NCBI GenBank assembly: GCA_015152555.1
Contig: SUTS01000010.1
Span: 1,138-65,137 of the forward strand
DNA from: Cyanobacteria bacterium SIG26
Lineage (GTDB): Bacteria > Cyanobacteriota > Vampirovibrionia > Gastranaerophilales > Gastranaerophilaceae
Length of the DNA stretch: 64,000 bases
Direction of reading: 5' to 3'
Shown: one piece after another, positions 130 through 26,463 of the stretch
How positions within the stretch are numbered: position 1 is the stretch's first letter
How the letters are laid out: each line of letters starts with the position of its first letter
Translations under genes and position numbers: made by a program
Notes under the pieces: model-generated
Told to the model about the DNA's origin: nothing
Databases searched by the model: none
What the model saw: only the letters and a program-made list of their open reading frames with translations

Positions 130-274
130 AGTTTGTGTCCTTTTTATACTACAGCTTCAGAGCAATTATACTACAAATTCACAATTCGGGAAAGTTTTTG
201 GCTAAATATCTCCATGTATTTTTATAAGTTGATGGAGATGAATTTTTAGTGGCAGATGTTTTATTTACTATTTT

Positions 275-5515: not shown

Positions 5516-7198
5516 ATGACAAAACTTTCACCATTACAAATTGAAAGATTAAAGTACCAACCAAAACTTCCTTCAAGCTTACGTTCCGGCGTAAATTTTT
5601 TGGAATTGGTTGAGGGATCTGCAACTGAATCAGTTAGAGATCAAGAGCAAATTAAAGAATTATTTGCAAATACTTACGGTAAACCGACTGTAACTTTTAG
5701 TTCTACATCATCATCTTCAACATCAGAAGTAAAAAATGTTGGTGTAATTTTATCAGGTGGTCAGGCTCCTGGTGGTCATAACGTTATTGCTGGTTTATAT
5801 GATGCGTTGAAAAATGCAAACTCATCAAACAAATTATATGGTTTCTTAGGTGGTCCATCTGGTATTATTGATGGCAAATATATTGAGTTCACGGATGAAT
5901 TTATTGATGAATACAGAAACACAGGTGGTTTTGATATTATTGGTTCAGGTAGAACTAAATTAGAAACTGAAGAACAGTTCCAAAAATCATTAGCTGTTTG
6001 CCAAAAATTAAACATTTCTGCGGTTGTAATTATCGGTGGAGATGATTCAAATACAAATGCTGCATTATTGGCTGAGTGGTTTGTGAAAAATAATACTGGT
6101 ATTCAAGTTATTGGTTGTCCAAAAACCATTGATGGCGATTTGAAAAATGAACAAATCGAAATTTCTTTTGGTTTTGATACAGCTACAAAAACTTATGCTG
6201 AATTGATTGGTAACATTCAAAGAGACGCAAATTCAGCTAAAAAATATTGGCACTTTATTAAAATTATGGGTAGAAGTGCATCACACGTTGCGTTAGAAGC
6301 TGCTTTGCAAACTCAACCAAATATCACATTGATTTCTGAAGAAGTACAAGAAAAGAAAATGTCACTTTCTTCAATTATAGATTATATGTCTGATATTATT
6401 GTTAAACGTTCAAATAATGGTAAAAACTTCGGGATTGCTGTTATTCCTGAAGGTTTGATAGAGTTTATTCCTGAAATGGGTTCAATGATTTCTAATTTGA
6501 ATGATATTATGGCAACATTAGAAACTGATCCAAGTTTTGTTAATGCAACAACAATAAGAGAAAAATTTGATATTGTTGAAAATAGATTAGATTCAGCAAA
6601 TGCTGCTGTATATTCATCACTTCCTGCATTAATTAAAGAACAATTATTAGCAGATAGAGATCCACATGGTAATGTACAGGTTTCAAAAATTGAAACAGAA
6701 AAATTGTTAATCGAAATGATTTCAACAAAACTTGATGAATTAAAATCACAAGGTGATTTTATTGGTAAATTCTCAGCACAATCACATTTCTTTGGTTATG
6801 AAGGTCGTTGTGCATTCCCATCAAATTTTGACGCTGATTATTGTTATTCACTAGGTTATAATGCTTTTGCGTTGATTAATTTTGGTTTAACAGGTTATTT
6901 ATCATCAGTTAGAAACTTGACACAGCCAGCAGACCAATGGATTGCAGGTGGTGTACCTCTTACAATGATGATGAATATGGAAAAACGTCACGGTGAAATG
7001 AAACCGGTTATTCAAAAAGCATTAGTAAGATTGGATGGACCTGTATTCAAACAGTTGGCTGATAACAGACAAGACTGGGCTTTAAATGATAGATATTTAT
7101 TCCCTGGTGCGGTTCAATATTTTGGACCAAGCTCTGTTTGTGATATTACAACAGTAACTTTACAACTAGAAAGAAGTAAAGAATTAGCTTCTGTATAA
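5516..7198 (+). CDS. pfp: diphosphate--fructose-6-phosphate 1-phosphotransferase (PPi-dependent phosphofructokinase, long type)
   Basis: 560-aa ORF. Motifs [29 protein letters not shown] and MGR are the PFK active-site blocks, in the ~550-aa PPi-PFK architecture. Confidence 0.85.
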
Positions 7199-7216
7199 GT
7201 TGAATAATGAGGAATA

Positions 7217-7253
7217 AAACAAGGCGGCGAGTTTTCTCGCCGCCTTGTTTGTA
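7217..7253 (+). terminator. rho-independent terminator of pfp
   Basis: 14-bp GC-rich stem AAACAAGGCGGCGA / TCGCCGCCTTGTTT with loop GTTTTC. Confidence 0.75.
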
Positions 7254-7316
7254 ATATAAGAAAATCGTAAAAAGTGTGAGAAACACTTATGTGGTTCTCG
7301 TCCTACTGACAGCATT

Positions 7317-7342
7317 AAAAAAGGACAGGTATGAACCTATCC
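7317..7342 (-). terminator. terminator downstream of tRNA-Ile
   Basis: On the minus strand: GGATAGG-TTCATA-CCTGTCC followed by TTTTTT. Confidence 0.55.
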
Positions 7343-7352
7343 TTCTTTAATC

Positions 7353-7426
<74 letters not shown>

Positions 7427-11009: not shown

Positions 11010-13022
11010 TTAAACATTAGTTGTTAAAGATGGTGCAATAGAAATGAATTGTCTTACTAAATGGCTATCCCATTGTATTCCTGCGCCTTCTTTTAATATT
11101 GCGCAAGCTTTTTCAATTGGCATACCTTTACGATAAGGTCTGTCACTTACAAGTGCGTGATATGCGTCTGCCACAGATACAATTCTTGCGGCAAGCGGAA
11201 TTTCGTCACCTTTTAATTGTTCAGGATAACCTTTGCCATCTAATCTTTCGTGGTGATATTTAACTATAGGAATTAAATCTCTCAAAGCTTCGTTTGGAGC
11301 TAAGACTTTTTCAGCACCGATTGTTGGGTGTTGTTTCATAATTTCCCATTCTTCATCGGTTAATTTTCCGGGTTTTTTCAACACAGATTCAGGAATTCCG
11401 ATTTTACCAACATCGTGCAATAAAGCTCCGATTTTTATTCGTTCAACTTCGGTTTCAGGGAGATTAACTGCGCGAGCTAGTGCTTCTGCGTATCTTGAGA
11501 CAGAAGTTGAGTGACCTTTTGTATATGGATCTTTTGCATCAATTGCACCCGCGATTGATGTAACCATTTCCATCAGGTGATTATGGTTTATAATTTCTTC
11601 TTGGTTAAATTTGTGTACAAGTTCTTCTTCGAAGTTTATACCGATTTGAGAGTGGCGTTTTGCAAGAACTTCCGCGAATGAGTCTAATGCTACATCATCC
11701 CAGAAGTTGAAGTCAGAAGAACTAATGATTGCAGACATTCCTTCTTTATAGCCTTTTGCTTGAGAAATAAACATTGCTTGTTCAGCTAAAATTAATAGTT
11801 TTTCTTGATCAATCGTACATTCAGGATAAGTTGAAACCCCTACAGATACTTTGATTGGGCCAACATCGTCAACAAAGCAACAAGATAAGCAGTATGTAAT
11901 ATATTCTGCTAAATATTTTGCATCTTTGGTGTTTGTGTTTGGCATTATAATTGCAATTTCATCACCGCCGTACCTTCCTGCCGAATCGTTTGCTCGGATA
12001 TTTTGTTTGATTTTTTCCGCAATTGTTTTAATTACTTCGTCACCTTTTGCGTGTCCAAGTTCTCTGTTGATTTTAGAGATATTATTGACATCAAACATAA
12101 CAACAGAAAGTGGTGTTTCTGTTTCTTTTGCTTTAGTAATTTCTTTTGCAAGAATTTCTTGAAATCCCCTGTGGTTATATAAAGATGTTAATGTATCCGT
12201 ATTTGCATATTTATTTGTTTGTTCCAGTAGCTGTGCATTATGAATGAACATTCCCATATAATTTGAGAAGAATGTTGTTAATGCCATATTAAGAGAAGTA
12301 ATACTTTTACCTACAAGCATTATACCTATACATTTGTTTACTGATATCATCGGAACAATTACTGAACTTGTTTTTGCCAAATAAGGAATGTTCAAATAAT
12401 TAATATTATCTTTGCTAATAATAGATTTTGTATTAAAGCATTCAATAATAGGGTTTGTTTCGTCTGATAAAAATACTTTTGATGAGTATGTATTACCTGT
12501 TTTACTGTATAGTTTAAGATTAATACACTTAGATTTTTCGTGTAACATACCAAATGCAACAAAATTCCATTTTAGTTTGTTTACAAAAATGTCATTTAAT
12601 TGTGTAACAAGGTTAATCATATTTTTACTGTTTTGAAAAATATCTGAAAGGTTTTTCAAAACATCAAAATAATTAACATTAGGATTTGAATAAGAAGAAC
12701 TATCCACAAAGTTTTGAGCATAAGATTTCGGCTTTGATTTTGTGGTGTTGAAATTGTTAATAGTTTCAACAATACTATCTAATGTAGCATCTTCTACTAT
12801 AGAAATAGGTGTAATAAGTTTATCTAGGCTCTTTCTTTTTTGAGTTAAATCTTGTGGTATTGTTGCATTTGTTTTGGCGGGAGGTATTTCATCATTTTGA
12901 GGTACAGAAATCATTTGAATTCCATCTATCGGACTTTTTACCTTTTTAATAGGATTAGAATTCAAAGCTTTTTTTCTACCTTTGGTATTTTTATTTGTTT
13001 CTTTGTTATCTATTTTTTCCAA
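11010..13022 (-). CDS. composite c-di-GMP enzyme: N-terminal sensor region + GGDEF diguanylate cyclase + HD-GYP phosphodiesterase
   Basis: 670 aa. GGDEF domain has RANDSAGRYGGDEIAIIM, with an RxxD I-site 5 residues before GGDEI. HD-GYP domain has HDVGKIGIP...HHERLDGKGYP. Confidence 0.8.
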   Translation of the reverse strand: MEKIDNKETNKNTKGRKKALNSNPIKKVKSPIDGIQMISVPQNDEIPPAKTNATIPQDLTQKRKSLDKLITPISIVEDATLDSIVETINNFNTTKSKPKSYAQNFVDSSSYSNPNVNYFDVLKNLSDIFQNSKNMINLVTQLNDIFVNKLKWNFVAFGMLHEKSKCINLKLYSKTGNTYSSKVFLSDETNPIIECFNTKSIISKDNINYLNIPYLAKTSSVIVPMISVNKCIGIMLVGKSITSLNMALTTFFSNYMGMFIHNAQLLEQTNKYANTDTLTSLYNHRGFQEILAKEITKAKETETPLSVVMFDVNNISKINRELGHAKGDEVIKTIAEKIKQNIRANDSAGRYGGDEIAIIMPNTNTKDAKYLAEYITYCLSCCFVDDVGPIKVSVGVSTYPECTIDQEKLLILAEQAMFISQAKGYKEGMSAIISSSDFNFWDDVALDSFAEVLAKRHSQIGINFEEELVHKFNQEEIINHNHLMEMVTSIAGAIDAKDPYTKGHSTSVSRYAEALARAVNLPETEVERIKIGALLHDVGKIGIPESVLKKPGKLTDEEWEIMKQHPTIGAEKVLAPNEALRDLIPIVKYHHERLDGKGYPEQLKGDEIPLAARIVSVADAYHALVSDRPYRKGMPIEKACAILKEGAGIQWDSHLVRQFISIAPSLTTNV

Positions 13023-16672: not shown

Positions 16673-17326
16673 TTAGTATAAAATGCATTTATTGCGGCCG
16701 GTGTTTTTGGCTTCGTATAATGCTTGGTCTGTTTTTTGTAAATAATCTTCTTTTGTAAGGAATTCATTACGGAATTGGCAAGCTCCGACGCTCACTGTTA
16801 CGCTAATTTCTTGATTTTGATATTTTAATCCAAGAGTTTCAATGGTTTTTCTAAATCTTTCAAGTGGAATAATAGATTGTTGTATATCGGTTTCTGTCAA
16901 AATAACAACAAATTCTTCGCCACCAAATCTAAATACGGTATCAGTTTTTCTGAATGTTTGTAGAGCTGCATTAGAAACTTGTTGTAGTACATAGTCTCCA
17001 CAAGGGTGGCCGTATGTGTCATTTATTTGTTTAAAATGGTCAATGTCAAACATAACAAGAGTTAATTTGTTAGAATATCTTGCGGCACGTAAAAATTCTT
17101 TTTCAAATGTATTTTCAAAACTTCTACGGTTAAACAATCCGGTTAATTCATCTGTCATGGACAAATATTTTGTACGAGTGTACATAAAATTTATTTGTTG
17201 TATGATTTCCAGTTTATTTTCTTCCGGAACGTCAAAATTTCTTATAATATCTTGAATGTTTTGTTGAATATCATCTAAAACACTATCCGGAATATTAAAT
17301 GCCATTTGTTCAATATCTTCAACCAT
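16673..17326 (-). CDS. stand-alone GGDEF diguanylate cyclase
   Basis: 217 aa. DELTGLFNRR and RKTDTVFRFGGEEFVVIL (I-site RxxD plus GGEEF). Converges on the recJ stop with a 4-bp gap. Confidence 0.8.
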   Translation of the reverse strand: MVEDIEQMAFNIPDSVLDDIQQNIQDIIRNFDVPEENKLEIIQQINFMYTRTKYLSMTDELTGLFNRRSFENTFEKEFLRAARYSNKLTLVMFDIDHFKQINDTYGHPCGDYVLQQVSNAALQTFRKTDTVFRFGGEEFVVILTETDIQQSIIPLERFRKTIETLGLKYQNQEISVTVSVGACQFRNEFLTKEDYLQKTDQALYEAKNTGRNKCILY

Positions 17327-17526: not shown

Positions 17527-18570
17527 ATGCATAATATTTCGTTGTTGAACAATTTTAATGTTTCAACCGTAAATACAGCAAAAGATAATAATGTAAATTC
17601 CCGTGTTACTAATCCGATAAAGACGGTAACAGATGGGGATAAACAGCTATTGCATACTTTAGATGTTTTATCAATTTTAAATCGTGCAAATATTGCAGAT
17701 TATAGATTAAGAATTTCATCTTGTGATGGTGCTATTGGCGAATTTAAGCAAGGTGGAATGGGTGATTGTTGGTTATTATCAGGGTTGAGAGCATTATCGA
17801 CAACGCCTATTGGTTCAGATATTATAAATAATTCTATTACTAAAAATGAGGATGGTTCTGTAAGTGTTAATTTCAAAGGATTAAATACTTCTTATGCAGT
17901 AACAGAGGAAGAATTTAACCGTGCAACTCAAAAATTTGTGACTAGTCCTGATGGTGTGAAAGAACGTGTGTATTCAAACGGAGATGCGGATGTTTTGGTA
18001 TTTGAATTGGCTGTAGAAAAACTACGAACTGACATTAGTGATGGAAAATTCGATGAAATAAAAGTGCCAAATTATGCCAAAACAATTTTAAATCCTAAAA
18101 AACCGCTTAATGATGGTAGCCCTGCTCAACTATTCTATTTGTTAACCGGTAATGAAGTGTGCGGTATTAATGGGCAAAACATTCAGACTCCTGATGGTAA
18201 AGTTCTTTGTAAAAATAATAGAGAAAAATTATCCGAATTTTTTGATAGGTATTTAATGGATAATAAAAAATATGCTGCAACATTTAATGTTGCTGACGGA
18301 TTAACTGTTGTTGATGTTTCGGGCAGAGAAATCCAATTGAGGCCAAAACATGAATATGCTATTGAGGGCTCTGTTGGGTCTAATTTGATTGTTACAAATC
18401 CGCACAATTCAGCAAGAAAATTAGTTATTCCTCTTGTAAACATTATAGATAATATCGGTGGGTTGAATTATCAAAATTTAAAAGATAATTACGATTTCTT
18501 TGATGATGGATTAAAGAAACATTTAATAAAATCTACCGCAGCAAATAATTATGTTAATAAGAATTATTAA
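17527..18570 (+). CDS. calpain-like (papain-fold, C2-like) cysteine protease
   Basis: 347 aa. QGGMGDCWLLSGLRAL (calpain Cys motif), KHEYAIEG (His) and IVTNPHN (Asn) occur in calpain order. No signal peptide. Confidence 0.65.
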   Translation: MHNISLLNNFNVSTVNTAKDNNVNSRVTNPIKTVTDGDKQLLHTLDVLSILNRANIADYRLRISSCDGAIGEFKQGGMGDCWLLSGLRALSTTPIGSDIINNSITKNEDGSVSVNFKGLNTSYAVTEEEFNRATQKFVTSPDGVKERVYSNGDADVLVFELAVEKLRTDISDGKFDEIKVPNYAKTILNPKKPLNDGSPAQLFYLLTGNEVCGINGQNIQTPDGKVLCKNNREKLSEFFDRYLMDNKKYAATFNVADGLTVVDVSGREIQLRPKHEYAIEGSVGSNLIVTNPHNSARKLVIPLVNIIDNIGGLNYQNLKDNYDFFDDGLKKHLIKSTAANNYVNKNY

Positions 18571-18572
18571 TA

Positions 18573-19148
18573 TTATTTGGCTTTAATGTTTGTTCCGAAC
18601 ATTTGATTATATCTGTTTGTAATTTTTTGTCGAATAGCTTTTCCGATTTTATTGTTTCCTTCAATTAAGCACATTGAACAAGTAGCATAATCATATCCAT
18701 TAATTTTCCCGTTTAAATTTCCGTTTTCACAATCTTTATCAAACACAGATAATACTGCGGCCATTTCTTTTTCATCAATTATTGTATTCCCGTCAACATT
18801 GATGTTGTTTGCGATATTTCGTGCTGCTTGTATGAACTCCGGATCATTTTTGTATTCAAGTGGTAATTTTGCTAATTCGGATTTTATATATTCTTGTAAT
18901 GTTAAATTCCCTTTGCCATCACCGTATGTTTTATCTAAATGAGTTATATATGTTTTGCCCAAATTTATAAAACCATTGCGATAAGCCTTATCAAGTTCTG
19001 ATGCAGAAGCTCCGCTTTTTACAAGGTTATCCCAAGCGCTGCCTAAAACATTAAAAGTTTTGTTTCGTAATGTTTTTTCGTCAAAGCTTGTTGCTGCAGT
19101 ATTAAACCAATTTTCTAATTTTATCCCAATATTATTTCCTGTACTCAT
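18573..19148 (-). CDS. EF-hand-type Ca-binding protein, paralogue 1
   Basis: 191 aa. Ca-loop-like segments YGDGKGNLTLQE, NINVDGNTIIDE and NGNLNGKINGYD. About 35-40% similar to the next ORF (shared AYRNGFIN..HLDxxYG). Confidence 0.6.
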   Translation of the reverse strand: MSTGNNIGIKLENWFNTAATSFDEKTLRNKTFNVLGSAWDNLVKSGASASELDKAYRNGFINLGKTYITHLDKTYGDGKGNLTLQEYIKSELAKLPLEYKNDPEFIQAARNIANNINVDGNTIIDEKEMAAVLSVFDKDCENGNLNGKINGYDYATCSMCLIEGNNKIGKAIRQKITNRYNQMFGTNIKAK

Positions 19149-19162
19149 ATATCTCCTTTCTA

Positions 19163-19789
19163 TTATTTACTTGTTTTTTGGGGATATGTTCCAAATAATT
19201 CTTCGTAAACCATTTTCATTTGTTGTAAAAATTCTTTTGCTTTTGTTGTTCCTTTTTCTACAAAACCGTATCCATGGCGGGTATAATCGGCACCATTAAT
19301 TTCGCCATCTTTATCCTCATCAATATCACCGTCAATTGTAGCTAAGAATGTCGCCATTTCTTTGACATTAATTGTATTTCCGCCCTCGATATTGATATTA
19401 TTGTAGGTATTTACAAACGGTTTGCTTGCGATTTCTTTTTCACGTATACTCATTTCTGACATATCACCATAAATAGTTTGTTGTCTGTATTTGACGAACT
19501 CACTACGAGTTAATTCCCCATCACCATTTCCATATTTTTCATCAAGATGTTTTATAAAATAGTTCGCCATATTAATAAAGCCGTTACGGTATGAGTTTTG
19601 TTCTTTTTTGCTAAGATTTTCCCAGTTTTCAATCCCATCAAATGCACTACCTGCGATAGAAAAATACATATTTTCAAGCTTTTGTGTGCTATATGTACTT
19701 TCTGCTTTAGCTAAAAAATTTTCTAATTTTATAGCAGCTTTTTTTGCAGCAATAGGCTGCGCATTGCTTCGAGTGTTAACCTTTGTCAT
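19163..19789 (-). CDS. EF-hand-type Ca-binding protein, paralogue 2
   Basis: Start taken at M23 of the track ORF (ATG 19789, AAGGGA upstream), giving 208 aa. Loops YGNGDGELTRSE and DEDKDGEINGAD. Confidence 0.55.
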   Translation of the reverse strand: MTKVNTRSNAQPIAAKKAAIKLENFLAKAESTYSTQKLENMYFSIAGSAFDGIENWENLSKKEQNSYRNGFINMANYFIKHLDEKYGNGDGELTRSEFVKYRQQTIYGDMSEMSIREKEIASKPFVNTYNNINIEGGNTINVKEMATFLATIDGDIDEDKDGEINGADYTRHGYGFVEKGTTKAKEFLQQMKMVYEELFGTYPQKTSK

Positions 19790-19892
19790 AATAATATCCC
19801 TTTTAATTTTATCCCTGTACTTTAATAAAGTTTTTTGAGTATAAAATATTGACAAAATATATATACTTTATTTACAAAGATTTACAATGGGG

Positions 19893-22265
19893 TTATTTTA
19901 TTCTTGTTACTAATATTTGGTAAACGTCTTTTAGCCACTCGTTTAAAGGTTTTTGGTAAAAAACTCCTGCCTGTTGAGGGTCGCTAAATGAAACTTCATC
20001 TGTTTTCGGATTATATGCTCTTAATGAAAGTGCGTGTCCTGTGTTATCATTTGTTCTTTTTGTTCCATAAGTCATAATATATTTTGGATTATTTATGAAA
20101 TTAGTAATAATTTCTTTGTATTTATCTTTTTCTTTGCTTAAGAATATGCGTGTTGTCGTTTTACCTTGTTGTCTTTGTTCGCATAAAAAATCATTAATAA
20201 CATCTTTAAAGTAACCTGTTCTTATTCTTTGATTTAATTTATCAAGATTATTTGTTGTGAGCGGGTTTTCATCTATGAAGCCATCTGATTTTCTTCTTAA
20301 ACTTGTTCTTTCATAAGTTCTTTCAAGCATTTGAATATGTTTTGGTGCATCAGCACTATGTTGCCCAAGTTCAATTTCACCTTTTGGAAATACAATGGTG
20401 CCATGATAATCTTTATATGCTGGAATTGTGACGAGAATATCGTCGCCTTTTTGTTCAAAGCATTTGTAATAAATTCCACGAGTTTTAGGGTTTTTATATA
20501 AAGATGTAAGTGATGTAATTAAATAACAATCATCTCTACCCTGCGATGTTGAAAATCTATTAACTAGTGGGAATAATTCGTTAAACTTTTCTTCGGTCAT
20601 ATTCCACCGTTCAAGTTTTCCGTCGTTGTTAATATACATTTTTCCTTTAACAGAAATGACGCTACCAGGTTTTGTTTGTTTAAGAACATCTTTTGTCGAG
20701 TTAAATTTTTTGATTATGCTTTGTCCTTTGTTTAAAGCTTGTAAATCTTCCAAGATTTCTGGCATAATATTCGATTGTTCGTTTATACAATTTAAAATTC
20801 TTGCATTCACTTTTCCATCATCAATGTGTTTGAAAAGTTTTGAATCTATCAATTGTTGCCACTTTTCAGGTTGTGTTCTTTTTATATTTAATAATGTAAG
20901 AGCAAGATATGGAGCTTCTTGCTTGTTTTTGTAATGTTTTTCAAGAAAATCACAAATTGGTTTGTAATGTTTGTTATACATAGTATCCAAATTTTTCCAA
21001 GTTGAAGGATTTTTGAATTGTGGCATTGAATCTAATAATAGAAGTTTTTTTAATGACTCTGAATTTATGTTGTTGTTTTTTAAACACATTTTTAGATATG
21101 GGAGATTGGTTTCTGAAATATTAAAAAGATAAGGTGAAATTGAAACGGAATCTTTTTGTTTTAGAATTTCGCCAATGAATTTTTTTAACATTTTTTCGTT
21201 AGTGCCTTTGATGTTTAAAAAATCATTCATACTTAGTAAACAGTATTCAGGAAAATCTTGCGGATGTTTTTCTGTCAATTTTATATAATAATCAAATAAT
21301 TCATCTGTTATTTTAAGTTGAGTTTTATTGTTAAAAATATCAGCTATTTTTTGCATCCCAGCGGGTAAAATCGGGGTTTTAATTCTTAGAATTTTTTTCA
21401 TTAAATCTGGATTTTCAATAGTTTCTTCCAGTAATGCTCTAAAACTGTTGATGTTTTTTTCTGTGAAATTTTCATCAAAATTAAAACTTTTCAAAAATTT
21501 ATTCGCTAATTCAGGGTCATTAATATTTTTTAGCTCTTCTATAAACCTGTCTATAAATTTTGAGTCTTTACAAACTTCATCGTCGCAAATCTTGAGGTAT
21601 TTGTTGACAGCTTCTTTGTCGATGCCTAGTTTTGTTAGTTTTTCGTTGGTGTTTTTCTCTAAATCGTCAAATAGTTTATATAAAAAATCTTCATCAATTT
21701 TATCAGATATTTTTATATTTTTTAAATAGTTTATGTCAATTTTTCCAGAGAGTATTTCAGTTGAAGCTTTGGATTTTACAAATGCACTAAAATTTTCCGG
21801 ATGAAAGATTGACATTAGTGCAAATTTTGAAGTCAAATGAGATTTATCAGACGGGTTTGTTGAGGTGACATGTTTAAAACTTTTGTTGAGATTATTTATT
21901 ATCTTGCAAAATTTTGCGTAATTTTTAGTGTTGTGCAAAATATGAATTATATGAGTTTCATCAGGACAGTATTTGATTATATTTTCAATTAACTCTTCGT
22001 GTTTGGCAAAAGATTGTAATTTATTTTCTTTTTTCAAATTTTGCCAAATTTTTTCTTTGATGTCTATAATTTGTTTTTTTGTGTTTTCAGATAATTTATG
22101 AAAATTAGATTCAGGACTAACGCGTTCAAAAAAATCAGGCATTTGTTCAAATGACTTTTTTATTGCAGATGAAATATTATCAGTGACTTTTGAGACCTCT
22201 TTGCTTGATTGGCATTCGTTAATTATGGATTTTGCGCCACATAATATTGTGCGTTGTAAACTCAT
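19893..22265 (-). CDS. large protein with a helical N-terminal region and a C-terminal diverged calpain-like cysteine protease domain
   Basis: 790 aa. The last ~230 aa contain SQGRDDCYLITSLTSL, TGHALSLRAYNP and SFSDPQQ, echoing the Cys/His/Asn(Asp) order of ORF 17527. No signal peptide. Confidence 0.5.
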   Translation of the reverse strand: MSLQRTILCGAKSIINECQSSKEVSKVTDNISSAIKKSFEQMPDFFERVSPESNFHKLSENTKKQIIDIKEKIWQNLKKENKLQSFAKHEELIENIIKYCPDETHIIHILHNTKNYAKFCKIINNLNKSFKHVTSTNPSDKSHLTSKFALMSIFHPENFSAFVKSKASTEILSGKIDINYLKNIKISDKIDEDFLYKLFDDLEKNTNEKLTKLGIDKEAVNKYLKICDDEVCKDSKFIDRFIEELKNINDPELANKFLKSFNFDENFTEKNINSFRALLEETIENPDLMKKILRIKTPILPAGMQKIADIFNNKTQLKITDELFDYYIKLTEKHPQDFPEYCLLSMNDFLNIKGTNEKMLKKFIGEILKQKDSVSISPYLFNISETNLPYLKMCLKNNNINSESLKKLLLLDSMPQFKNPSTWKNLDTMYNKHYKPICDFLEKHYKNKQEAPYLALTLLNIKRTQPEKWQQLIDSKLFKHIDDGKVNARILNCINEQSNIMPEILEDLQALNKGQSIIKKFNSTKDVLKQTKPGSVISVKGKMYINNDGKLERWNMTEEKFNELFPLVNRFSTSQGRDDCYLITSLTSLYKNPKTRGIYYKCFEQKGDDILVTIPAYKDYHGTIVFPKGEIELGQHSADAPKHIQMLERTYERTSLRRKSDGFIDENPLTTNNLDKLNQRIRTGYFKDVINDFLCEQRQQGKTTTRIFLSKEKDKYKEIITNFINNPKYIMTYGTKRTNDNTGHALSLRAYNPKTDEVSFSDPQQAGVFYQKPLNEWLKDVYQILVTRIK

Positions 22266-22434: not shown

Positions 22435-23754
22435 TTGGTAGAAAGATTTTATATAAAAGGTGGGACCCCTTTAAAAGGTGAAGTATCTATAGGCGGGGCG
22501 AAAAATTCAGTGTTAAAGCTTATGGCTGCTGCAATCTTAGCAAAAGGCGAATCAAAAATATACAACGTACCTGAATTGACAGATGTTGAGATTATGCTTA
22601 ATGTGATTGCTCAGTTAGGTGCAAAAACAAGCTATAATAGAGAAGAAAAATCATTAACAATTGATGCTACAGATATTACAAATGTTACTGCTAGTTATGA
22701 ATTAGTAAGTAAAATGCGTGCATCTTTTATTGTTTTAGGTGCGTTAGTTTCTCGATGCAAAGAGGCAAGAGTTGCACTACCGGGTGGTTGTGCAATCGGT
22801 GAAAGACGTGTGGATTTTCATATTCGCGGTTTGGAAGCCTTGGGTGCTAAAATTAAAATTGAAAACGGCTATGTTCATGCTAAAACTAATAAGCTTGTCG
22901 GTACAGATATTTATTTAGATATTCCTTCTGTTGGAGCGACAGAAAATATTATGTTGGCATCTGTTTTAGCAGAAGGTTCAACAAGAATTCAAAATGCAGC
23001 GCAAGAACCAGAAATTGTTGATTTGGCAAACTTCTTAAATACTATGGGGGCGGATATTATTGGTGCAGGTACTTCTGAAGTTATTATCAATGGGGTAAAA
23101 CAATCTGATTTGCATCCGATAGAATACACAACAATTCCTGATAGAATTGAAGCCGGAACTTTTATGACTGCTATTATTGCGACAAAAGGTAAAGGTATTA
23201 TTAAAAATATTTATCCTGCACATTTGACATTCTTCACTGACAAATTGTTGAAAATGGGTGCAAATATTAAACTTTTGGATCCTACATCGATGGAAGTTAG
23301 TTGCAAAAATAGACTAAATTCTATTAACTTTGTAACCCAACCATATCCAGGATTTCCAACCGATTTGCAATCAATGGCGATGACTTTGTTAACAACAGCG
23401 AACGGTGTTGGGATAATCACAGAAAGTCTATATGAAAATCGCTTTATGCAAGTTCCTGATTTAAATAGAATGGGTGCTGATATTCATCAGGACAGAAACC
23501 ACGCTATTATTAAAGGTGTGAAAAAACTTTCCGGAGCAACACTTACAGCAAGTGATTTAAGAGCGGGAGCGTCTCTTGTAGTTGCTGCCTTAATGGCTGA
23601 TGGTAATTCTATTGTCGAAAAACTACATCATATAGATAGAGGATACGAAAATTTTGAGAATAAGATAAGATTGTTAGGAGGGAAAATTGAAAGAAAGAGC
23701 GAAGATTCCCAAATTAACCTAACGGAGGGTACACATAATGAGTCCTACTTATAA
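22435..23754 (+). CDS. murA: UDP-N-acetylglucosamine 1-carboxyvinyltransferase
   Basis: 439 aa. TTG start is 5 nt after GGAGG. GGAKNS, LPGGCAIGERRVD (catalytic Cys loop) and DRIEAGTF are MurA hallmarks. Confidence 0.9.
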   Translation: MVERFYIKGGTPLKGEVSIGGAKNSVLKLMAAAILAKGESKIYNVPELTDVEIMLNVIAQLGAKTSYNREEKSLTIDATDITNVTASYELVSKMRASFIVLGALVSRCKEARVALPGGCAIGERRVDFHIRGLEALGAKIKIENGYVHAKTNKLVGTDIYLDIPSVGATENIMLASVLAEGSTRIQNAAQEPEIVDLANFLNTMGADIIGAGTSEVIINGVKQSDLHPIEYTTIPDRIEAGTFMTAIIATKGKGIIKNIYPAHLTFFTDKLLKMGANIKLLDPTSMEVSCKNRLNSINFVTQPYPGFPTDLQSMAMTLLTTANGVGIITESLYENRFMQVPDLNRMGADIHQDRNHAIIKGVKKLSGATLTASDLRAGASLVVAALMADGNSIVEKLHHIDRGYENFENKIRLLGGKIERKSEDSQINLTEGTHNESYL

Positions 23755-24076
23755 ACGTTGGTATGATCATGACCCATTATTATTAGAAGTAATTGAGCTT
23801 TTAAGAAATTATCAAAATGAACTAAGAGCTCAAGCAGAGATATTTTTGCAAAAAATAGAAGAAAAAGTTTCTAAAGAAACAATCGATAAATTTTATGCAA
23901 TGGTAAAACCTGTGAATGCAAACAACCGTTGGTATGATAAAGATCCGGTTATTTCAAGAACAGTTGAAATTCTTAGAATTGTGCCACCTGAGGCTCAAAG
24001 AATTTGTGCACAAAATTTCATTAAAACGCTTAAAGAAATGGGAATTGAGTACGAAAGCAAAAACGTACAAATTTAG
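23738..24076 (+). CDS. hypothetical protein with a duplicated RWYDxDP helix motif
   Basis: 112 aa. Overlaps the murA end by 17 nt. KRWYDHDPLLLEVIELLRN and NRWYDKDPVISRTVEILRI form an internal duplication. Confidence 0.55.
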   Translation: MSPTYKRWYDHDPLLLEVIELLRNYQNELRAQAEIFLQKIEEKVSKETIDKFYAMVKPVNANNRWYDKDPVISRTVEILRIVPPEAQRICAQNFIKTLKEMGIEYESKNVQI

Positions 24077-25115: not shown

Positions 25116-25160
25116 GAGTTGGGGAAATGTAGTTACCAACCGTTGTTTAATTAGTAATAC
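25116..25160. repeat. 45-bp direct repeat copy A2 (partner at 24332..24376)
   Basis: See copy A1. Preceded by GTCATTTTGAG, the inner motif of the 53-bp units. Confidence 0.8.
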
Positions 25161-25164
25161 TAAA

Positions 25165-25271
25165 GGGGGGTAAATATATTGGTATCTTTCCGCCTCGTTC
25201 GATTCATGTCATTCTGAGGGGGGTAAATATATGGGCATTTTTCCATTTCGTTCGACTCTCGTCATTCTGAG
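25165..25271 (+). repeat. two tandem ~53-bp units (GGGGGGTAAATATAT...TCATTCTGAG)
   Basis: Unit 1 starts at 25165 and unit 2 at 25218. Both begin GGGGGGTAAATATAT and end GTCATTCTGA(G). The middles are about 70% identical. Confidence 0.8.
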
Positions 25272-25490
25272 GGCTTTGGCCCGAAGAATCTCGTAAAATT
25301 GTATAGAAATAATAATAAAAGATTCTTCGCTCCTTCGGTGTTCGCAATAAACGGCACCGCTTACACTTGCAACGAAAACTCAACGTTTCCGTTGGCGCGT
25401 GTTCGTCTCTCACTACGTTCGTGCCTCTGCTCTCACCGGCTTAGAATGACGATGGTAGGGAAGGTTATTAACATCAATACATTTACCCCC
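25219..25490. repeat. 272-bp composite palindromic (MITE/REP-like) element with a GC-rich core
   Basis: Left arm is 25219..25271 (GGGGGTAAAT...TCGTCATTCTGAG). Right arm is 25440..25490 (CTTAGAATGACGA...ATTTACCCCC), its inverted counterpart. The core has its own 10-bp hairpin (25282..25291 / 25320..25329). Confidence 0.6.
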
Positions 25491-25634
25491 GCTCAGAATG
25501 ACGTTGTTTTCCCTCCCTGGATGGTGCAAAATGAACAGGCGAGGTACGAGCCTTGTGAACTTGTATACCGAGGCGCAGCCGAGTGTTGGAGGGTTAGGGG
25601 TCTATCTTAAAAATGCAATCAATTTATTTACATC

Positions 25635-25663
25635 TTGAAAAACCTTATACAATTTGTTATACT
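25635..25663 (+). promoter_or_regulatory. candidate sigma70 promoter of the prepilin gene
   Basis: TTGAAA, 17 nt spacer, TATACT. Same architecture and flanking TTGTATA strings as the promoter at 31342. Confidence 0.5.
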
Positions 25664-25701
25664 TGTATATGGAAGTTTATATGAATACAAAAGGAGGTAT
25701 T

Positions 25702-26463
25702 ATGTTGAAATCCAGTTGCAGAAAGAATTTTGGAGAGCTAACCTCTAGAGGGTCTAAAAAACAAGCGTTTACACTAGCGGAAGTTTTGATAACATTAGGT
25801 ATAATAGGTGTTGTTGCGGCAATGACAATTCCGACATTGATAGCAAACACAAAAAGTCAACAATTCCGCTCACAATTTAAAAAGACGTTATCTACACTAA
25901 ACCAAGCAGCTTTAATGTCGAAAGCTCAGTATGGTTTTGATTACAGTGGACTAAATGCAGATTGTGGTGGTGCATCTGATGATCCGACAGTGACTAGATC
26001 AATGTGTGCATTGTTAAATGGTACATTGTCGGGGTACACTTATATAGGAAAACCAACGGTTGAAAATTTTAAGATGTCAAATGGTTTAGCATATAATTAT
26101 GAGGAAATAATGGGAGCGGTGTTATTTGCACCTAATGCAATTATTTATTCATTATCTGATGGGTCTATTGTCGGCTTTTATCCGGTAATGCAAGATTGTA
26201 CTTCTCCACCAGGAAATGTTTTTGATCCAGATTATTGGGTTTTTGATAAAACTGCTTGTGTAGGTTTTATCGATGTTAATGGTCTTGCTGGACCTAATAA
26301 AGAAGTTGATTGTGATAATCCAAATGAAAATGGATGGGGTAACGAACCTTGTAAAGTTTCAAATGGTAAAGGTATGGGAGATGTGTTTCATGTAGTTTTC
26401 CATGGAGCAACTATAGAGCCGGCGACAAAAGCAGGGCGAGCTGTTCTAAATTCAACAAAATAG
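25702..26463 (+). CDS. prepilin-type N-terminal cleavage/methylation domain protein (pilin/pseudopilin-like), paralogue 1
   Basis: ATG is 5 nt after AAGGAGG, giving 253 aa. An unusually long 22-aa leader precedes FTLAEVLITLGIIGVVAAMTIPTL. IDVNGLAGPN motif is shared with paralogues 2-4. Confidence 0.75.
   Translation: MLKSSCRKNFGELTSRGSKKQAFTLAEVLITLGIIGVVAAMTIPTLIANTKSQQFRSQFKKTLSTLNQAALMSKAQYGFDYSGLNADCGGASDDPTVTRSMCALLNGTLSGYTYIGKPTVENFKMSNGLAYNYEEIMGAVLFAPNAIIYSLSDGSIVGFYPVMQDCTSPPGNVFDPDYWVFDKTACVGFIDVNGLAGPNKEVDCDNPNENGWGNEPCKVSNGKGMGDVFHVVFHGATIEPATKAGRAVLNSTK

Follow-up and report, generated by a model that had tools for sequence, protein, structure and literature searches.

Do calpain-like proteases and EF-hand proteins encoded side by side in a bacterial genome form a Ca2+-gated unit, or do they only happen to lie together? 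The question is raised by four open reading frames (ORFs), labelled here A, B, C and D, at positions 17527-22265 of a 64,000-nucleotide stretch of DNA from Cyanobacteria bacterium SIG26 (Gastranaerophilales; contig SUTS01000010.1). This whole stretch, which is ~31% G+C, is referred to as the window. A and D carry cysteine protease motifs, and B and C, which lie between them, carry EF-hand-like loops. The original prediction, made from the letters and their translations, joined the four into a possible split, Ca2+-gated protease module. The ORFs, their coordinates and the quoted motifs were rechecked and all were found in place.

The reading favored here, at a probability of roughly 0.6, is that A and D are soluble calpain-type proteases and that C and B bind Ca2+ and are co-transcribed with D, the grouping being a local juxtaposition and not a module. 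All four genes come from two protein families, both of which have undergone a great expansion in gut Melainabacteria (Gastranaerophilales). The first consists of non-classical bacterial calpains with papain-fold C2-type cysteine peptidase domains (A and D) and the second of diverged three-loop EF-hand proteins (B and C).

The calpain-like domains of genes A and D

Gene A was predicted to be calpain-like, with Cys, His and Asn in calpain order (QGGMGDCWLLSG at amino acid (aa) 75, KHEYAIEG at 274 and VTNPHN at 289), and the profile searches bear this out. By itself A stays below the cutoff of Pfam Peptidase_C2 (PF00648; 16 bits, E 0.006, residues 72-102 only; cutoff 23.8), and the sole match of a single-sequence search against PDB is calpain-8 at E 0.82. 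Eighteen homologues of A were found. All 16 aligned members of the family match Peptidase_C2 at E<=0.1, and the A-family proteins P0017 and P0018 exceed the curated cutoff over model positions 30-244. Q75, at the place of the oxyanion-hole Gln six residues ahead of the Cys, does not vary in alignments of 16 and of 40 homologues, and neither do C81 and W82; H275 varies little or not at all, and N291-P292 only rarely. A profile, A7, made of 40 family sequences taken from the genome-scan loci, was then compared with PDB. Nineteen of its 20 matches at E<=0.01, including all the strongest, are calpains, and the best is calpain-9 at E 7.7e-11. The calpain-9 alignment consists of two stretches, the QGxxGDCW motif and 'GG...LTG...HAYS...NPW', with the Cys, His and Asn in register. 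H275 and N291-P292 of A align with the 'HAYS...RNPW' of calpain-8, -1 and -9. In addition, 35 of the 40 family members match PF00648 at E<=1e-3 (best 5.7e-12). From these alignments A is assigned to family C2 as a diverged bacterial calpain. P0017 (L047:8263-9861) and P0018 also have a second, C-terminal calpain-like repeat in which 'GTDFSVAPAIHAVA' replaces 'QGxxGDCWLLSG', the repeat being probably a duplicate that is inactive as a protease.

The core Ca2+ sites of rat calpain-2 are formed by I89, G91, D96 and E175 (site 1) and by E292, D299, Q319 and E323 (site 2) (PMC4631099). Judged by the family profile these intrinsic sites do not appear to be evidently kept in A's family, a possible likeness to the non-classical bacterial calpains. 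In the calpain-9 alignment the site-1 Glu ('SYEAL') faces a variable column. The position three residues before the catalytic Gln, which corresponds to the site-1 Asp, is Glu72 in A and Asp in its orthologues and is not kept family-wide. Site 2 lies outside the aligned region. With the site-1 Glu on a non-conserved column an external Ca2+ sensor would make sense, and this counts in favor of a split protease.

Gene D was said to repeat the calpain pattern in diverged form toward its C-terminus, with QGRDDCYLITSL at aa 575, TGHALSL at 742 and SDPQQ at 761. The repeat stands, with two departures from calpain: the third catalytic residue is Asp instead of Asn, in a DP where calpain has NP, and the catalytic Cys is followed by Tyr where calpain has Trp. 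D alone has no Pfam match, and its profile gave only spurious repeat-protein matches among PDB sequences. A word-indexed search found five homologues, consisting of four distinct relatives at 38-54% identity and one identical entry. Q575, C580, H744 and D762-P763 are invariant in all five D orthologues. Comparison by hhalign of the D C-terminal sub-alignment with 77 calpain-like domains gave a probability of 97.2% (E 4.5e-11, 201 columns), the catalytic residues falling on matching columns; against the small alignment of A the probability was 70%. The match to the 77 domains indicates that D holds a calpain-like domain with a Cys-His-Asp triad, and on this basis the C-terminal ~220 aa are placed in the same family as A. 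The profile comparison that had been suggested as a check on the protease family thus assigns both regions to the calpains, with the catalytic residues aligned.

Conservation in D is highest over the last ~275 aa. Identity to the sister species described below is 66% in the C-terminal part and 48% in the N-terminal part, and identity to the distant orthologues is 51-54% and 31-34%, respectively. The helical region ahead of the protease domain had been put at ~560 aa. Modeling of full-length D with AlphaFold2 (five sequences) agrees that it is all-alpha, with nothing but helices over aa ~50-480 and a predicted local distance difference test score (pLDDT) mostly of 75-92; its length is ~515 aa. 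Searches of this helical domain with Foldseek and in Pfam, NCBIfam and PADLOC gave nothing significant. It showed no similarity to the N-terminal regions of other ~750-aa calpain-like proteins, in an alignment that included some unrelated long ORFs. Most likely it binds substrates or partners, or autoinhibits. The C-terminal domain was modeled at pLDDT 25-50, and this poor model accounts for the lack of a significant Foldseek match for D. The local matches of its strands, in this low-confidence model, are all at E>=0.3; they are to papain-like folds, namely C39, m-calpain (1u5i) and a toxin of papain-like type.

A layout like that of D recurs in proteins of ~700-800 aa from many Gastranaerophilales species (L052-L068, L072), which have a conserved ~500-aa N-terminal region followed by a C-terminal calpain-like domain. 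L058:8408-10678 and L063:8402-10678 are examples. Their N-terminal regions are unrelated to that of D.

None of the four proteins A-D contains a hydrophobic stretch (maximum Kyte-Doolittle mean over 19 aa <1.0), so none has a Sec signal peptide or a transmembrane segment. The absence of a Sec signal agrees with the original prediction, and a cytoplasmic location is expected for all four. A and D, as far as their aligned residues tell, would be catalytically active.

Bacterial calpains, including cyanobacterial ones, are already known (PMC4631099, PMC9380684), and how the eukaryotic calpains arose is a matter of continuing debate (PMC9380684). Rawlings 2015 (PMC4631099) describes the bacterial enzymes as rare, devoid of EF-hands and for the most part independent of Ca2+. 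To this known group A and D add two new and highly diverged members. Like the non-classical bacterial calpains (MEROPS C2; PMC4631099, PMC9380684), they have a CysPc-type core with QGxxGDCW followed by the His and the NPW Asn, and they are of the monomeric type, having variable accessory regions and neither a calpain III domain nor a penta-EF-hand. They differ in being far more diverged, A alone falling under the Pfam cutoff. D differs further in its Asp as third residue, in the Tyr after its Cys and in its ~515-aa all-alpha domain, which is not seen elsewhere.

The family also departs from the description of bacterial calpains as rare, being common and multi-copy in Gastranaerophilales. A census that took one genome per species and +/-10 kb around each locus found 63 calpain-like loci with ~95 calpain-like ORFs. 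Fifty-eight of these loci are Melainabacteria-type, 37 of them labelled Melainabacteria, Gastranaerophilales, Vampirovibrio or Cyanobacteria and 21 coming from unlabelled or mislabelled metagenome-assembled genomes. The other five are weak partial matches in Actinomycetota and Planctomycetota. The earlier statement that calpain-like proteases are uncommon in bacteria does not apply to this lineage, nearly all loci being from Gastranaerophilales/Melainabacteria and often holding several paralogues. No paper in the searched literature names both Melainabacteria and calpain. Two features that this literature does not link to the lineage appear as new: the multi-copy spread of diverged calpain-like domains in Gastranaerophilales, a non-photosynthetic sister lineage of Cyanobacteria, and the architecture that joins an all-alpha domain to a Cys-His-Asp calpain-like domain.

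The EF-hand family of genes B and C

B and C were taken to be paralogues, and they are (34% identity, E 6e-32). The motifs quoted for B are NINVDGNTIIDE at aa 115 and NGNLNGKINGYD at 142, and those for C are YGNGDGELTRSE at aa 86 and DEDKDGEINGAD at 157. Each protein has three EF-like loops at equivalent positions. Judged against the EF pattern of oxygen ligands at positions 1, 3, 5 and 12, Gly at 6 and a hydrophobic residue at 8, loop 3 of C (DEDKDGEINGAD) is fully canonical, and loops 2 and 3 of B and loop 1 of C are near-canonical. Ligand positions are degraded in loop 2 of C, with Gly at position 5, and in loop 1 of B, with Lys at position 5. Both proteins are below the Pfam EF-hand cutoffs (best 16 bits vs 30), C matching EF-hand_7 at a sub-cutoff E of 0.012. 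Used as single queries in Pfam and PDB, none of A, B, C and D gave a match above threshold.

The relatives are more telling. A word-indexed search found six sequences for B/C, and an exhaustive HMMER search with the B/C family was run, which gave 136 cluster representatives. Most relatives are 260-360 aa long and have the B/C-like domain at the C-terminus. P0062, P0033, P0124, P0094, P0037 and P0058 exceed Pfam EF-hand gathering scores; against EF-hand_1, with a cutoff of 25.4, P0062 scores 28.8, P0124 29.6 and P0094 36.8. The family profile searched against PDB (E<=10) gave weak matches, the best at E 0.017, mostly to calmodulins and other EF-hand proteins. In the family logo the central loop is canonical, DxNxDGxIDxxE, loop 1 has a conserved aromatic residue, often Tyr, at position 1, and loop 3 is degenerate. 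The AlphaFold2 model of C (pLDDT 63) has two helix-loop-helix units, with helices flanking loops 1 and 2 and short paired strands at aa 93-94 and 139-140. Foldseek with this model placed NCS-1, obelin and aequorin best, at E>=0.79, which is not significant. Taken together, loops and relatives mark B and C as diverged three-loop EF-hand proteins, and both would be expected to bind Ca2+.

The loops had been described as EF-hand- or dockerin-like. The EF-hand part of that description holds, through the relatives above the Pfam cutoffs, and the dockerin part does not, there being no Pfam Dockerin match in B or C at E<=1. A calpastatin-like role had also been considered for the small proteins; no calpastatin-type Pfam match was found in either at E<=1, and any likeness to calpastatin would be one of function.

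In their helix-loop-helix units and 12-residue DxDxDG-type loops B and C resemble calmodulin and the small bacterial EF-hand proteins. Unlike calmodulin-like proteins, they have an extra N-terminal helical part of ~55 aa, and in their family loop 1 is non-canonical, loop 3 is degenerate in most members and many members have N-terminal extensions. The analogy originally drawn was with classical eukaryotic calpain and its penta-EF-hand (PEF) domains, PEF(L) and the PEF(S) of the small subunit. The likeness lies in protease and EF-hand proteins that are encoded close together, and in the small subunit of classical calpain being a separate polypeptide, as B and C are. It does not extend to a penta-EF-hand partner as in the calpain holoenzyme: B and C have three EF-like loops with weak, generic EF-hand matches, and their linkage to the proteases is not conserved.

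The N-terminal extensions of the B/C relatives consist of LysM domains, low-complexity stretches rich in G, M, P and Y, or a module of ~100 aa. LysM, above the Pfam cutoff, stands at the extreme N-terminus of P0065, P0094, P0133, others and L026:11387-12214, with no signal peptide. This is an odd pairing for a peptidoglycan-binding domain. The ~100-aa module has the motif 'GQGITQAIASxLGLSxxDCKK..W.QVMSLV' and occupies aa 1-100 in the B/C-family proteins P0033, P0056, P0062, P0081, P0122, P0124, P0127 and P0151; it is also present in L076-L080. It looked LysM-like by eye, and this assignment was rejected at an hhalign probability of 4%. The module occurs, too, in a 257-aa gene (L015:3349-4131) directly 3' of a calpain-like gene with membrane-anchor-like N-terminal segments.

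Conservation of the cluster and linkage of the two families

The four genes are adjacent, as first described, and a strand split was overlooked: D, C and B are co-oriented on the minus strand, and A is on the plus strand and convergent with B. The gap between D and C is 103 nt. The gap between C and B is 14 nt and holds a strong Shine-Dalgarno sequence, AAAGGAG, for B. An alternative TTG start would extend C to 19855; this longer reading is unlikely because AAGGGA precedes the ATG. The stop codons of A and B are 2 bp apart (window 18568-18575). Neither the D-C gap nor the junction of A and B yielded a terminator-like site in a promoter and terminator scan, and the A and B transcripts must overlap or end within the opposite gene. 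The scan, with 45 promoter-like sites where 34 are expected, is uninformative in such AT-rich DNA. From orientation and spacing we infer that D, C and B are co-transcribed.

The four-gene cluster was found only in the window and in one close sister species (loci L004-L008), with identities of 72% for A, 81% for C, 67% for B and 54% for D. The order in the sister species is murA<-, D->, C->, B->, <-GGDEF, A->. The pair formed by the GGDEF diguanylate cyclase gene and A is inverted relative to the window, and the GGDEF gene there lies between B and A. Beyond these two species the cluster falls apart into its ends. Around orthologues of A at ~50% identity (L001, L011-L014) the divergent GGDEF gene of 217 aa is retained, and B, C and D are absent over 8-10 kb. 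Orthologues of D at ~38% identity (L002, L009) keep murA and the 112-aa gene and have a convergent glyoxalase gene downstream; no B/C-like gene and no A is near them, and no small same-strand gene lies downstream of D. In each of L002, L007 and L009 the D orthologue is bordered by murA and the 112-aa gene, arranged as in the window. A's conserved partner is a small diguanylate cyclase and D's conserved neighbor is murA. There are thus two separately conserved blocks, murA-D and GGDEF-A.

The constancy of the second block suggests another role for A, in which A and the divergent diguanylate cyclase make up a proteolytic switch linked to cyclic di-GMP (c-di-GMP) and the closeness of A to B and C is irrelevant. 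A GGDEF gene of 217-219 aa lies immediately upstream of A, and divergent from it, in every A-orthologue locus (window, L001, L004, L005, L007, L011-L014), in at least three distinct flanking contexts. LapG, of the LapG/LapD system, is a c-di-GMP-controlled, Ca2+-dependent cysteine protease and serves as a precedent, by analogy only: it is a periplasmic transglutaminase-like (C93) protease and not a calpain. The likeness is a cysteine protease gene kept beside a c-di-GMP signaling gene; the difference is that no LapD-like receptor or adhesin substrate was seen here. The argument is one of synteny among fairly close relatives, with A at least 48% identical, and the distant A-like proteins (L015-L017, 30-33% identical, with hydrophobic membrane-anchor-like N-termini) have no GGDEF neighbor. 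No c-di-GMP-binding motif is on record for A, no search aimed at one having been made. A c-di-GMP switch is a long shot.

In the favored reading, local juxtaposition, the cluster would be a lineage-specific meeting of a murA-D block, to which C and B had been added, with a GGDEF-A block. A would be a small soluble Gln-Cys-His-Asn enzyme retained as a divergent pair with the small diguanylate cyclase, and D a 790-aa soluble protein retained beside murA. C and B would be a tandem duplicate inserted downstream of D in one sub-lineage and probably co-transcribed with it. A and D may carry out limited intracellular proteolysis, with C and B binding Ca2+, and any coupling would be between D and the downstream C and B, not with A.

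The census speaks to linkage in three ways. First, a B/C-family gene lies within 10 kb of only two of the 58 Melainabacteria-type calpain-like loci. The L026 gene encodes LysM and EF-hand and is convergent; the one in L055 follows a calpain-like gene of 771 aa after 65 bp, both being on one strand. Second, a reverse census, in which metagenomes were queried with the B/C family, gave a small sample of seven loci, and at none of the five with usable flanks was a calpain-like gene found. B/C-family genes outside the cluster sit amid housekeeping genes, as in L075 and L077, where it has a 334-aa gene on one side and, on the other, a Cys-rich gene of 223-226 aa with a ~340-aa gene after it; from their translations the 334-aa and ~340-aa neighbors look like a BadF-type ATPase and rlmN. 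Third, ORFs with a generic canonical EF-loop pattern are not enriched within 600 bp of calpain-like genes (4/121 vs 8/535, p 0.25). A lack of conserved linkage had been named beforehand as grounds for giving up the split module, and it is largely what was found, the linkage being seen in two close species only. This confinement of the grouping points to a local juxtaposition of two lineage-expanded families and not to a conserved Ca-gated machine. The four-gene 'module' is most likely a neighborhood coincidence together with a two-species operon.

Calpain-like ORFs elsewhere in the census have variable N-terminal regions, among them RHS/YD-type repeats, coiled coils, hydrophobic transmembrane-like segments and a recurrent ~750-aa class. 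Some form tandem arrays (L021:6534-15625, four members; L029:9680-16853, four; L028:5877-10891, three; L022:941-5364, three). The members of these arrays are ~280-1000 aa long, and RHS/YD-type repeats or long coiled coils precede their protease domain. The gaps between them are ~10-330 bp, and no ORF is listed in between.

Variable N-terminal repeats and coiled coils joined to a C-terminal calpain-like domain, arranged in tandem, would also be a picture of effectors or toxins, with the calpain-like domains as C-terminal toxin heads and C and B as immunity or inhibitor proteins. The two small genes are directly 3' of D, and the papain-like toxin matched locally by Foldseek belongs to a toxin/immunity pair, 9l5u, although the match is not significant. 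The tandem arrays themselves do not fit, since no intervening ORF is listed between their members. Across genera A and D occur as single orthologues, each in a syntenic setting of housekeeping genes and not as a variable cassette, and none of A-D has a signal peptide or a recognizable trafficking domain. A toxin head would not be expected to be the most conserved part of D, and the D orthologues of L002 and L009 lack a small same-strand gene at their 3' side. Many B/C-family proteins have LysM or another N-terminal module of their own, and their genes lie alone among housekeeping genes. No relatives of the cluster proteins were found in phage contigs, and the PADLOC defense-system models and NCBIfam gave no match for the cluster. 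An effector/immunity role is very improbable.

A number of observations weigh against local juxtaposition. The co-orientation and operon-like spacing of D, C and B are held in both species, as in a functional unit, and between the two C is better conserved than D (81% vs 54%). EF-hand-bearing genes adjoin calpain-like genes in L026, L039, L048 and L055. The ~100-aa module of the B/C family also opens a calpain-like protein, P0018 (aa 1-100, phmmer E 7e-11). Seven proteins of 475-553 aa (three each in L022 and L028, one in L042) have an EF-hand fused to a calpain-like domain. In addition, the design of the census, with one genome per species and short flanks, limits what can be concluded about linkage.

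The fusions deserve a closer look. Their N-terminal module 'SKEWF ... NIFxxLDxNGDGxISxxE' is followed by YD/RHS-like repeats and then by the calpain-like domain. The module matches Pfam EF-hand models at E-values of 1e-5 to 1e-3, below cutoff, and aligns with the B/C family by hhalign at 91% (E 9e-7, 53 columns over loops 2-3). Canonical EF loops occur inside 9 of 75 calpain-like ORFs and in 8 of 535 other ORFs (Fisher p 4e-5), a p-value that overstates the case since the nine stem from just two or three independent lineages. No EF-hand domain was present in any of the bacterial calpain homologues then known (Rawlings 2015, PMC4631099), and these few fused homologues appear to be new. A search of the literature for Gastranaerophilales and EF-hand gave one paper, an unrelated proteome survey. 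The fused proteins have a single N-terminal EF-hand pair, unlike the C-terminal PEF of classical calpain. With them it becomes plausible that EF-hands and calpain-like domains are functionally linked in Gastranaerophilales; that C or B acts on D or A is a separate claim.

That separate claim is the split protease proper, in which C and/or B would be trans-acting Ca2+ sensors that switch D, and possibly A, separate polypeptides doing what penta-EF-hand domains do in classical calpains. It draws on the operon-like D-C-B string of the two species, on the fusions, which occur in proteins of the same taxonomic order, and on the closely spaced gene pair of L055. Set against it, the D orthologues of other genera have an equally conserved protease domain and no EF-hand neighbor, and A is on the other strand, parted from B by the GGDEF gene in the sister species. 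Adjacency is not enriched, and the fused cases come from few lineages. The fused EF-hand resembles the B/C family at the level of a generic EF-hand pair only, and several B/C ligand positions are degraded. On balance a split protease is unlikely. A wider version holds that gut Melainabacteria run a bacterial Ca2+/calpain system whose EF-hand modules are either fused, as in L022, L028 and L042, or separate, with D-C-B as the split form. It is a shade more doubtful. Were it true, it would be the first prokaryotic partnership of a calpain-type protease with EF-hands, in a sister lineage of Cyanobacteria, and EF-hand control of these proteases would offer a simple bacterial model of Ca2+-gated limited proteolysis. 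The parts worth following are the Gastranaerophilales expansion, the all-alpha/Cys-His-Asp architecture and the EF-hand fusions.

Feature coordinates and other elements near the locus

Table 1. Positions of the four genes, their neighbors, residues and loops of interest, and the fused homologues. Nucleotide positions are those of the window unless a locus is named.
Feature	Position	Strand	Description
GGDEF diguanylate cyclase	16673..17326	-	stand-alone, 217 aa; divergent from A; TIGR00254 E 6e-53
Gene A	17527..18570	+	347 aa; stand-alone calpain-like (C2-type) cysteine peptidase
A catalytic residues (putative)	Gln75 17749-17751; Cys81 17767-17769; His275 18349-18351; Asn291 18397-18399	+	from alignment to calpain
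Gene B	18573..19148	-	191 aa; EF-hand family; distal in D-C-B string
B EF-like 12-residue loops	aa 75-86, 117-128, 142-153	-	loop pattern
Gene C	19163..19789	-	208 aa from ATG at 19789; EF-hand family
C EF-like 12-residue loops	aa 86-97, 133-144, 157-168	-	loop pattern
Gene D	19893..22265	-	790 aa; all-alpha part plus calpain-like part
D C-terminal part, aa 516-790	19893..20720	-	diverged calpain-like domain, Cys-His-Asp triad
D catalytic residues (putative)	Gln575 20541-20543; Cys580 20526-20528; His744 20034-20036; Asp762 19980-19982	-	from alignment to calpain-like domains
D N-terminal part, aa 1-515	20721..22265	-	all-alpha, ~30 helices, no assigned role
murA	22435-23754	+	divergent from D
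112-aa gene	23738-24076	+	after murA; divergent from D
Fused EF-hand/calpain-like proteins	L022:941-5364 (x3), L028:5877-10891 (x3), L042:1008-2555 (x1)		shared N-terminal EF-hand module

A GC-rich island is present at window 25154-25506, in a 1.58-kb gap upstream of a pilin-like gene, with 45-51% G+C against a background of 31%. It is built of two 53-nt units in tandem together with copies of GTCATTCTGAGGG in inverted orientation (three matches vs 0.06 expected). Its folding is far better than that of shuffled sequence (z -3.6 and -5.6), and a search of Rfam up to E 0.1 gave no match. The equivalent gap in the sister species, ~230 bp, has no counterpart. The island is probably an insertion resembling a miniature inverted-repeat transposable element or an undescribed small RNA.

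Prepilin-type proteins, recognized by the N-terminal FTLAEVLITLGIIG methylation motif (TIGR02532), are encoded at window 25654-26463. Proteins of this type also flank the B/C-family gene of L077, at 6607-7374 and 12214-12840.

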